64,000 nucleotides of DNA, from NCBI GenBank assembly GCA_951804945.1, contig OX638163.1:26660001-26724000 (forward strand), in the 5' to 3' direction. The notes below the pieces were generated by a model, which saw nothing but the letters and a program-made list of their open reading frames with translations, was not told where the DNA came from and made no database searches. The translations under genes and the position numbers were made by a program. The DNA is from Podarcis cretensis. Lineage: Eukaryota. This document shows, piece by piece, positions 35,186-38,641 of this stretch (its first letter is position 1; each line of letters starts with the position of its first letter).

Positions 35186-37010
35186 TAAATGATGTGGAAT
35201 TGTGCCAAACTGAACTTACCAATGGAAAAATTAGAAACCGAAATTGAAACATTTGTCCATTCTTCACACACACACACACGTAAACAGTGGAGTCAAATGG
35301 CAATGAAATGCAAACTATACAGTCAGTAATAATTCAATTAAAGTGTAAATGTATGGAAAATAAGCACTGTCTCGATCCACAGCTGTAATTGGTGATAATA
35401 CAATTGTCCTAGAACTGATAAGTTAATTAACAGCTGTAGCAGGACAGAAAAACATTCAGCGTATTCATGTCCAAATGGATCATGGTGTCTGTCTTTAAAA
35501 GCCACTTCATAAAATTATCTCCTTCTCTGCTTCTGCCCATATGCTTTTATAAATCCTCCATCTTCTCTGTCTCTTGCAGGCAACTTGATTTGTAATGTGA
35601 TACAGCAATAAATTATGTGCATCTCAGTCCCATGCATGTTAACTCTGAGGTCAGTTAAGCATGGCTTACTAGCAAGTAAGCATGCACAGGATGGCAGTGT
35701 TAGTTGAAGTATCTTATTTTGTCCAGGCTGAGACTCCCTTCTGTACAAGGTTCTGAGCTTCATCCCCCTCCCCTTGCCCAACTTATGGTATTCCAGAATT
35801 TAATGCTAGGAAAAGCAAATGTATTAGCAGTAATGGCCTGGAAGGGGAGGCTGATCAACAAATTAGGAGGCTCACTACCATCCTTTAAGCCCTCTAGATT
35901 TCTGCTGACCTGACCTAGCTATAAATATTTCCAGCTATTTGTCTGGCTGTTGCATATGGGCAGAAGAGTAATATTATTTGTGGAGTTGTGCACACCATGG
36001 CTTCTCAAAATTCCCCACCTTACTTGGTGGCACAGAAATTGAGAAAACTACTTCACACACCCCACCCAAGTCAGGTGGGGAGGAAAGAAAGAAATATCAG
36101 CTAACTGGTGCAAACACCCTGCATGCTTTCAATGTGTGATAGGGGTTGTGTACAATGCACCACAAGATATATCACCCAGTGCCAATTCTGTGCACTGTTG
36201 GTCATTCAGCATTTATGCACCATCATGGTGTTGCCTCAGCTGACCCAAGGAACATCTACCGGCAATACTATGCTGTACTCAGTGCTCAGTCATTAGAAAA
36301 TCAGTATTAAGATAAAAAGAATGGAAGAGTAAGACAACTCTCTCTACCTGGCCTTCAATTCACCCCAGGCCATACACTCTCTCCTGGCCACATCATTCAC
36401 TATCATTGCTTCAGAACCCAAGTATTTTCTCCAAGTTGGAAGGTGTCCTTGAACTATGATAACACCTCTTGTGGTCCCAGGCATGGTGTGCCATGGGTTG
36501 TTGGTGTTGGGTGTTGGCAAGGAGGAGGTCTGCCAACTTTAATAAAATACTGGGGGAGGGGCAGGTAAGCCCCATCCTGTATAAATCAATCCCATGACAT
36601 GTTGCAAGCACACCATTTTAATGGCAATGCCCATCAACTTAGGGCCTCCCATCAAATATTTTATGGGGGGGGGTCAAAGCCCCCTCAGTCCCTAGGAGTT
36701 GGCTCCTATGGCAAGAAGTAATATTGACAAGACAATATATTGGGATCAAATTGACCACAGCTTTATTGATTACAGATGTCAGTAGGTTTTGGCATAGATA
36801 CTGGGCATGTATCCTGAATCAGTTAACCAATTTGCTGGCTGATTATTCCATCAGGTTTAATACTGGATGCATCAATGACATGCATCAATTCCGGGCAATC
36901 CCTCCAGGTCACCACTTCTATGGCCAATTAGCCTCATCTGGGCATTCAAACAGAAACCTTTCCCCTATAATGGGGGCACCATGGTACTTATTTGGTCAAA
37001 TAAATGGGGG

Positions 37011-37586
37011 TGTGATGGCCTGGGATTCCGATTCAGAGGCTGAACCAGAGGAATCCCAGCCTGCACAGGAGTCCCCGCCTCCAGGGCCGGCTGAATTGGG
37101 GCAGGGCCTGGATTCTGAAGCACCTGCACCTGTGTTAGATCCTCAGGAGCAGGCACCAGGTGATCCCACTCTGGCCCCAGAGGTGGTTGAGGACTCAGTG
37201 CCTGCAGGTGAGTCTCCCCCTGGGCCCAGTAACCCTTTAGCCTCTCCTGAACTGCAGAGACTCAGGGCAGAGAGGCGAAGGGAACTGGTTGCTCCCAGGA
37301 GGAGTGCTCGCCTTAAGGCCAAGAGAGGCGGGTCTCCTGGGGGCCGGGACCGCCCCTAGCCTCAGAACAGATAAAGGCCAGTCGGCCCGGTCCCAGGTTG
37401 TGGGAGCAACGTCGTTGTTGAGTTCCTGTTCATGCCCGGACCCAGACCTGACTCTTCAGTGCTCCTGTCCCCGCCCGGCTTCCTGTTTCGGACCTCGCCC
37501 CGCTCCTTGTGGACTGATTCCAGGCTAGTGACCCAGGACCGGACTTTGACTACACCTACGGTAACCTCCCCCCCGGGATCAGCACA
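37011..37586 (+). mobile_element. Young solo LTR (Gypsy-like), 576 bp
   Basis: Inverted termini TGTGAT...AGCACA; flanks GGGGG/GGGTG (or perfect GGGTG TSD if the LTR starts at 37013); GC- and CpG-rich; TATA-like GATAAA at ~37370. Confidence 0.8.
37015..37359 (+). CDS. LTR U3-encoded 114-aa acidic/Pro-rich peptide with an RRSARL motif (expression unproven)
   Basis: ATG 4 nt inside the LTR; MAWDSDSEAEPEESQ...PLASPELQRLRAERRRELVAPRRSARLKAKRGG...; stop just before the TATA-like box. Confidence 0.5.
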   Translation: MAWDSDSEAEPEESQPAQESPPPGPAELGQGLDSEAPAPVLDPQEQAPGDPTLAPEVVEDSVPAGESPPGPSNPLASPELQRLRAERRRELVAPRRSARLKAKRGGSPGGRDRP

Positions 37587-37768
37587 GGGTGTGTGGTTCT
37601 GACTCAGCCACCACTGCCAAACTAAGGATTCAACCCACAGAACTTTTCTGCCAACAAGTTCTGACTATTGCTATGAGTTAGGCAAAACCTCCAGGCAAGT
37701 CCAATTTTCTATTCAGGGAAATTCCTTCTTGGAATAATATAACATATAGCAGCCTTCACCAACCTGGT

Positions 37769-38020
37769 GCCAGTGTGGTGTAGTGGTTAAGAGCGGTAGT
37801 CTCGTAATCTGGTGAACCGGGTTCGCGTCTCCGCTCCTCCACATGCAGCTGCTGGGTGACATTGGGCTAGTCACACTTCTTTGAAGTCTCTCAGCCCCAC
37901 TCACCTCACAGAATGTTTGTTGTGGGGGAGGAGGGGAAAGGAGAATGTTAGCCACTTTGAGACTCCTTAGGGTAGTGATAAAGCAGGATATCAAATCCAA
38001 ACTCCTCCTCCTCTTCTTCT
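37769..38020 (+). mobile_element. Squam3-like tRNA/CORE SINE
   Basis: Same sequence as 6799-7050, with a (CTC/CTT)n tail. Confidence 0.88.
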
Positions 38021-38131: not shown

Positions 38132-38641
38132 GGGCTGGATCTACACTGACCTGTTTTATGTTACAGTGGTACCTCGGGTTAAGTACTTAATTCATTCCAG
38201 AGGTCCGTACTTAACCTGAAACTGTTCTTAACCTGAAGCACCACTTTAGCTAATGGGGCCTCCTGCTGCCACCACGCCACCGGAGCACGATTTCTGTTCT
38301 CAACCTGAAGCAAAGTTCTTAACCTGAGGTACTATTTCTGGGTTAGCAGAGTCTGTAACCTGAAGCGTATGTAACCTGAAGTGTATGTAACCTGAGGTAC
38401 CACTGTATTAGAATAATATTAGATATGTCATTCTAAGATATCACAGGGCATATTTGGAAATTAAATAATTTTTTATCTTTTTTTATCTTAACGCTGCTCG
38501 TTGCTCTGCAGCACCTTCTGGTGTCACATTTTAATAAAACATTATGAACGCTAAAAGTAGGACGTCATGTGTCCATCTCTGTTATCAAAACCCTTCCATA
38601 ACTCTTCTTTAACGTTAAGAACCATGAGTGTAGATCCACCC
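38132..38641. mobile_element. PIF/Harbinger-like MITE hosting a Tigger-like MITE
   Basis: TIR GGGCTGGATCTACACT...AGTGTAGATCCACCC. Confidence 0.6.
38164..38405. mobile_element. Tc1/mariner (Tigger-like) 242-bp MITE, opposite orientation
   Basis: TA-flanked CAGTGGTACCTCGG...GAGGTACCACTG. Confidence 0.92.

Follow-up and report, generated by a model that had tools for sequence, protein, structure and literature searches.

The chromodomain has so far been assumed to account fully for how vertebrate Gypsy retrotransposons pick their insertion sites. Vertebrate chromoviruses of the Tf1/sushi type, the V-clade of sushi-ichi, Amn-ichi, Amn-ni and Amn-san (PMC2774666, for the definition of the clade only), are described with the order Gag-PR-RT-RH-IN-SH3-chromodomain, self-priming, a common LTR end and a 5-bp target duplication. 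Among plant elements, the C-terminus of integrase lies in U3 in CRM group A and in beet Bingo1-4/7, and has been proposed to serve targeting (PMC3059260, PMC3605345). CRM LTRs begin with TGATG, and U3 of CRM group A encodes the CR targeting motif (PMC3059260); as far as the accessible descriptions go, these elements carry this motif instead of a chromodomain, have a tRNA-Met primer site and are centromeric. The entry of pol into the 3' LTR is already known from these accounts of plant chromoviruses, which limits the surprise of meeting it in a lizard.

MMTV sag and HIV nef are likewise encoded in U3 and translated from its copy in the 3' LTR, and KSHV LANA places a short arginine motif on the nucleosomal acidic patch. 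An arginine also anchors foamy virus Gag, and probably MLV p12, to this patch, where the short motif is proposed to hold the pre-integration complex (PMC11054761). HMGN2 and HMGN5 contact the patch via RRSAR, which are the five residues visible in the structure of HMGN2 on the nucleosome, while Dsup binds via PPRRSSRLT with the last arginine as the anchor (both from the available part of PMC12487698) and yeast Dot5 via RRSARIAT (PMC13347269, likewise). As Dsup and Dot5 bind with these sequences, the SA that follows the motif in HMGN is not required. The HMGN motif and the HMGN-like motifs of Dsup and Dot5 have an RRSAR(L) core set in disordered, charged sequence, as does the lizard tail described below.

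The stretch of DNA analysed here (the window; 64,000 nt of Podarcis cretensis contig OX638163.1) holds a solo LTR whose U3 carries an open frame with an RRSARL motif. The element from which it derives shares domain order, self-priming, LTR end and 5-bp duplication with the V-clade, but its frame runs 114-142 aa past the chromodomain inside the 3' LTR, a tail that the available V-clade descriptions do not mention. As in CRM group A, pol enters the 3' LTR; unlike that group, the lizard family has neither CR motif nor tRNA-Met primer site, encodes a complete group I chromodomain before the polypurine tract in addition to the tail, primes itself and is dispersed. Compared with HMGN, the motif lacks the SA of the invariant RRSARLSA, and the tail, known here from sequence alone, matches no Pfam family, gives no stand-alone match to the HMGN profile and stands at the end of a retrotransposon polyprotein. 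Whereas foamy virus Gag, MLV p12 and LANA are Gag-derived or separate proteins, the lizard motif belongs to the integrase frame and follows a histone-tail reader; and whereas sag and nef are separate genes on spliced or internal RNAs of their own, the lizard frame is fused to pol and continuous with integrase. Its domains, aromatic cage and priming place the element among the Tf1/sushi-type chromoviruses; it is not an HMGN, CRM or sag/nef-type gene. Our literature search, which covered openly accessible article text but not Repbase/Dfam, turned up neither an HMGN-like or acidic-patch motif in the integrase of a retrotransposon nor a U3-coded tail in vertebrate chromoviruses.

The solo LTR and its full-length relatives

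The LTR occupies 37011..37586 of the forward strand, begins with TGTGATGG and ends with TCAGCACA. It is flanked in the window by GGGGG (37006..37010, +) and GGGTG (37587..37591, +), a 5-bp target duplication with one mismatch. Such duplications are typical of the family, with a perfect one in 16 of the 20 solo copies found among the 30 nearest loci. The 1.5-Gb genome contains 2173 candidates for this LTR (family A, subfamily A), and the 40 that were scored are 97-100% identical over 576 nt. Together with five LTR pairs enclosing gag-pol, this identifies 37011-37586 as a solo LTR left by a Tf1/sushi-type chromovirus (Ty3/Gypsy) that is young and present in many copies. The initial annotation had reported a 576-bp solo LTR on the basis of its ends, and both the element and all coordinates given for it (37011-37586, ATG at 37015, RRSARL at 37297-37314, GATAAA at 37370) are borne out. 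Its description as CpG-rich applies relative to the flanks (observed/expected 0.38 versus 0.20), and not in absolute terms, with 21 CpG observed against 55 expected; the LTR is also GC-rich relative to its flanks.

The 5' terminal motif TGTGATG (37011..37017, +) is an imperfect inverted repeat of the 3' end and includes an ATG at LTR positions 5-7; relative to the sushi motif TGTYANR, as listed in Table 3 of PMC3601003, it has G at the Y position. The TATA-like GATAAA lies at 37370..37375 (+), a position that suggests a promoter role, and a self-primer complementary to the primer-binding site behind the 5' LTRs lies at 37400..37409 (+), marking the probable RNA 5' end.

With respect to chromosomal position, 42 of 136 family A sites fall in the outer fifth of the distance to the contig end (14 of 150 were dropped, being second LTRs of pairs and one contig of unstated size), as do 29 of 94 sites of the sister family D (the first 94 of 150). 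This mild end bias is present in both families and is not diagnostic. No centromere-like clustering was found in the 136 family A or 94 family D sites, and the family is dispersed. Near the LTR the window also contains interspersed repeats (37768-37969, 38162-38407 and others) of families of about 200 nt and 250 nt that recur in it.

Five LTR pairs were read in place and correspond to full-length or internally deleted elements. Inside them Pfam detects Gag, a CCHC knuckle, protease, RT, RNase H, integrase zinc finger and core, SH3_Tf2-1 and a chromodomain (Chromo, E 8e-15 and 2e-14), the last following rve and SH3_Tf2-1 immediately ahead of the tail. TG..CA LTR pairs with target-site duplications thus surround a gag-pol of the Ty3/Gypsy order PR-RT-RH-IN, with the chromodomain at the integrase C-terminus as in Tf1/sushi elements. 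Two copies point to a single Gag-Pol frame: in one the frame stays open over 990 aa, from Gag to RNase H, and in the other over 744 aa, from RNase H to the tail end.

Behind the 5' LTR, four of the five full elements carry a 10-nt exact complement of LTR positions 390-399 (duplex -23.4 kcal/mol), and no tRNA-type primer site was found there in the five elements. A self-priming site in place of a tRNA primer site is given as a Tf1/sushi trait (PMC6317226, in the part available). From the self-primer, the RNA would start near 37400, some 25-30 nt behind GATAAA.

The chromodomain aligns to HP1-beta with E 2.6e-12 and has Y, W and Y at the positions of the aromatic cage, the three residues by which group I chromodomains are defined (PMC3605345, as accessible). 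In a tree of the SH3-chromodomain region without support values, two frog proteins are next nearest outside the family. Three frog chromovirus proteins (P0003, P0004, P0009) show PRRARI and PRRSRL directly behind the chromodomain; P0009 ends in PMRIRSR, which is reminiscent of the MxLRSG motif of LANA and IL-33.

Continuity of the U3 frame with integrase

The U3 frame (37015..37359, +) starts at the ATG at 37015 and comprises 114 codons and a TAG at 37357-37359; in 3' LTRs it forms the C-terminal tail of the integrase-chromodomain frame. Residues 1-76 have a net charge of -17 and residues 77-114 of +9. The intact 114-aa frame first noted in the window is found there and in 17 of the 30 nearest copies, but is not the sole length: six copies reach 119 aa, stopping at the TAA inside GATAAA (37372-37374), and seven are broken earlier. 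The TATA-like box doubles as the polyprotein stop codon in subfamilies B and C and in part of A, and the window lineage has an earlier TAG, five codons upstream of the GATAAA stop. A stop-free frame of at least 114 aa arises in 1831 of 3000 dinucleotide shuffles of the window LTR, so a long frame is unsurprising in a single copy and the case rests on the family.

In four of the five LTR pairs the chromodomain frame crosses the polypurine tract and continues as MAWDSDSE... in the LTR. Among the 30 best chromodomain hits, the five pairs included, 14 junctions are in frame, and 12 of these are open from the chromodomain to the tail end. The in-frame spacing is the commonest (13/30), and one further copy has an in-frame 21-nt deletion. 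In the other 16, the G-rich tract has changed in length and shifts the junction by one or two bases. On an integrase tree that is rough (three long-branch rows, unsettled bootstrap), the out-of-frame state is scattered, with 9 changes against a shuffled mean of 10.2 and 143 of 500 shuffles as low. These junctions are as expected from copy-by-copy slippage or assembly error and not from a tail-less lineage, which finds no support since they do not cluster on this tree. The G-rich tract before the 3' LTR (L166-L195) varies in length in more than half of copies that differ by about 1-2% elsewhere; slippage in reverse transcription, slippage in the genome and assembly error are indistinguishable as its source.

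One B-type (L196) and one C-type element (L198) likewise have the chromodomain in frame into their own LTR; a pattern search for B-type junctions gave 0 matches, the B junction coming from the chromodomain hits. The same fusion is present in a public Podarcis muralis polyprotein (P0002), which runs from protease to the same tail. We conclude that in full elements the U3 frame supplies the C-terminus of Gag-Pol/integrase and is not a stand-alone gene. The initial annotation had named this as its alternative, an internal frame such as integrase running into the 3' LTR, and the check it proposed, reading pol through the polypurine tract, gives the in-frame continuity found in 4/5 pairs and 14/30 junctions.

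No Pfam family was detected in the tail (P0001) at E 0.1. Tail homologues outside Podarcis were found neither in the homologue search (7/7 hits in Podarcis) nor in a profile search of 1.84 billion representatives, where the profile consisted of the 129 tail columns only and all 6 hits were from Podarcis.

Selection on the tail and its arginine-rich end

Two older LTR subfamilies, B and C, were found beside family A loci, and 30 loci of each were sampled. Tails are open in 23/30 copies of A (114 or 119 aa), 22/30 of B (about 142 aa) and 18/30 of C (129 aa), and the subfamilies' GATAAA offsets and U3 lengths are 30 and 69 nt apart, each divisible by 3. For dN/dS we used the 27, 19 and 21 of 30 copies (A, B, C) with no net indel and classed codon differences per column. 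The whole-tail values are 0.26 (A-B), 0.31 (B-C) and 0.58 (A-C), with Fisher p of 5e-9, 1.5e-7 and 0.045, respectively, and A-B differences fall mainly on third codon positions (56 versus 31 and 28). Private changes, taken as a neutral yardstick under the same simple count, give pN/pS of 0.61-0.87, so the A-C value is not clearly below neutral.

This constraint is unevenly distributed. Residues 1-20, the conserved acidic stretch MAWDSDSE... (37015..37074, +), have dN/dS of 0.07, 0.12 and 0 in the three subfamily pairs, with 13 of 20 residues common to the subfamilies, six of them with a synonymous codon change. The acidic Pro/Glu-rich linker of residues 21-76 (37075..37242, +) varies in sequence and length (dN/dS 0.45-0.82). 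Residues 77-91, SPELQRLRAERRREL (37243..37287, +), are the best-evidenced case, showing the strongest protein-level constraint in the tail, with 13 of 15 residues common to the three subfamilies and eight of these with a synonymous change. Over residues 77-105 dN/dS is 0.18 (A-B), 0.08 (B-C) and 0.37 (A-C), with Fisher p of 6e-4, 1e-6 and 0.08; pS is as high as elsewhere (0.55-0.63 for A-B and B-C), pN is 0.10-0.16, and the ratio is near the 0.09 obtained for SH3 plus chromodomain from one A-B pair. The tail thus keeps its frame across three LTR subfamilies and is under purifying selection at both ends. The comparison among subfamilies that the initial annotation had called for therefore speaks for conservation of the frame at the protein level (dN/dS 0.26-0.58).

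The RRSARL motif, residues 95-100 (37297..37314, +), is a candidate HMGN-like arginine anchor, judging from the sites partly described in PMC12487698 and PMC13347269. Its amino acids are common to all three subfamilies, while the three residues before it and one after it vary (KA follows in A, mostly QA or RA in C and B). Although its codon contains a CpG and has decayed in 24% of 118 genomic copies, the last arginine remains the most frequent residue there in every subfamily. PRRSARLK fits the register of the HMGN2 and Dsup motifs, and RRSxR, three arginines and a disordered context are all present. The HMGN likeness proposed at the outset therefore stands for RRSAR, which matches the five residues of the HMGN2 structure as described, and not for the full core, the lizard sequence being RRSARLKA and not RRSARLSA.

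By analogy with the viral tethers, a role of the tail in tethering integration, as part of integrase, is plausible. Our leading explanation, to which we give about an even chance, is that this is the integrase tail of a sushi-type chromovirus whose arginine end, on the H2A-H2B patch, and methyl-lysine chromodomain together hold the integration complex. Its observed parts are the frame continuity, the domain order, the intact cage residues and the purifying selection on both tail ends. The internal Gag-Pol frame would be read through the polypurine tract into the 3' LTR, so that the tail is translated, and the tail would stay on integrase after protease processing. The chromodomain likely reads a methylated H3 lysine, the variable acidic middle may act as a flexible spacer, and the arginine-rich end probably contacts the H2A-H2B acidic patch through RRSAR. 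Chromodomain and tail could then make two contacts on the nucleosome, and this two-point tether may affect where or how well the element inserts. Some observations weigh against this explanation: besides the 16/30 out-of-frame junctions, the A-C ratio close to neutral, the restriction of the tail homologues found to Podarcis and the DNA identity of the RRSAR codons described below, RRSxR arises in 188 of 3000 dinucleotide shuffles (RRSARL in none), and a SINE spells RRSARF by chance.

The tail may instead be a real part of integrase whose arginine-rich end is a nuclear localization signal or a plain DNA-binding helix, with the HMGN likeness incidental. Basic signals of this kind are known from retrotransposon integrase tails, as in Ty1. 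NLS motifs are also mentioned for beet chromoviruses (PMC3605345, in passing), the clearest protein constraint falls on SPELQRLRAERRREL and not on RRSAR, and in two sister families the U3 tail, read in the frame of the chromodomain, finishes with arginine/lysine clusters but lacks RRSxR, which counts against the tether as well. Set against this, RRSARL is kept amid differing neighbours, including its S and A, which is sharper than a basic cluster needs. We regard this incidental likeness as possible but somewhat unlikely.

Codons 95-99 (RRSAR) are not only conserved as protein but DNA-identical in A, B and C, whereas DNA identity in the other conserved-residue columns is 21/48; the chance of this for the RRSAR codons is about 0.01 (class rates multiplied). 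Two pattern searches of the genome for synonymous RRSARL codons in a diverged family found none; the 3 + 3 matches, which are lower bounds, were the SINE, an unrelated locus and individual LTR copies with mutations or deletions. Conservation of RRSAR as protein and conservation as promoter DNA both fit, and a promoter-level constraint may bear on precisely this motif, which lies 55-70 nt before GATAAA. That these codons are kept purely as promoter DNA, with the protein tail a tolerated read-through constrained elsewhere or not at all, could also accommodate the out-of-frame copies. It is at odds with the high pS and low pN of residues 77-105, with length changes in multiples of three and with the failure of out-of-frame copies to form a lineage, and we consider it quite improbable.

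That the U3 frame also, or instead, encodes a separate small protein from its own ATG, on a subgenomic or spliced RNA or by host read-through, is very improbable: the ATG is kept in all three subfamilies with G at -3 and +4, but it and its context are conserved as part of the LTR terminal integrase-recognition motif, the whole frame precedes the probable RNA start, and the tails of both sister families enter the LTR without an ATG there. We accordingly reject the small accessory protein with its own ATG favoured by the initial annotation, the frame being continuous with Gag-Pol/integrase. As a solo LTR's own promoter would not transcribe the frame, and no upstream frame is joined to it, the frame in the window is a passenger copy. 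Several Podarcis gene models do start at the LTR ATG, one of them spliced to unrelated exons (P0015, P0016), but these are automatic predictions. Contigs of 4 runs presumed to be RNA span the element; no GT..AG joint into the 3' LTR was found in these contigs, which cannot show starts or levels.

Subfamily B LTRs (L036-L065) have a donor-like GT[GA]AGT at most 60 nt before GATAAA in 22/26 copies, compared with 4/30 in C and 0/29 in A. The Podarcis muralis model LOC114604991 (P0016) starts at the LTR ATG, follows a B-type tail through RRSARL and then runs into unrelated sequence, possibly an exonisation of a B-type LTR.

Sister families and insertion targeting

Two further chromovirus families of this genome have a comparable layout. 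Family D (L096-L165, e.g. L126, L139, L149 and L153) is abundant and young, with 2201 candidates for SH3_Tf2-1; it encodes a chromodomain without cage aromatics, two tandem F-acidic-FxGF motifs and a tail of about 100 aa in what is probably the 3' LTR, ending in P-x-[ST]P-x-LRRR..RRE.RRR and WK[RK]FKKRP. Family E (L210-L216, L220, L221, L224) has a chromodomain without the cage residues, one EIFEETDSEEEEFIGFG motif and, beyond the purine tract, about 103 further aa that finish in a basic stretch. In both, acidic stretches with two (D) or one (E) F-x(8-10)-FxGF are followed by the purine tract and TGTCAGG, which we take as the LTR start. RRSARL is absent from the D and E tails in the chromodomain frame. 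Since D and E share their layout with family A, a U3-coded tail is common in this genome, and the short motifs differ by family.

A helix, an acidic linker and FxGF define the motifs that bind the TND of LEDGF and HRP2 (PMC9987994, as far as available), and the FxGF motifs of D and E resemble such LEDGF/HRP2-binding TIMs at the sequence level. U3 may then be a swappable coding cassette for integrase targeting, pairing a methyl-lysine chromodomain with an HMGN-mimic anchor in A-C, while in D and E LEDGF/HRP2-type FxGF motifs precede the U3 tails; we offer this tentatively and think it unlikely as it stands.

For genome annotation, the family is a warning: thousands of solo LTRs offer an ATG in a favourable context followed by an acidic open frame, and existing Podarcis gene models begin in such LTRs (P0011, P0015, P0016). 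For the biology of these elements, the conserved tail behind the chromodomain is a short natural peptide that is directly testable, its motif having been solved on the nucleosome in HMGN2 and Dsup. The tail may also bear on the search for the partner of the plant CR motif (PMC3059260). If the cassette reading is true, a vertebrate retrotransposon would have reached both retroviral tethering solutions, the acidic patch and LEDGF, by short-motif mimicry on integrase.
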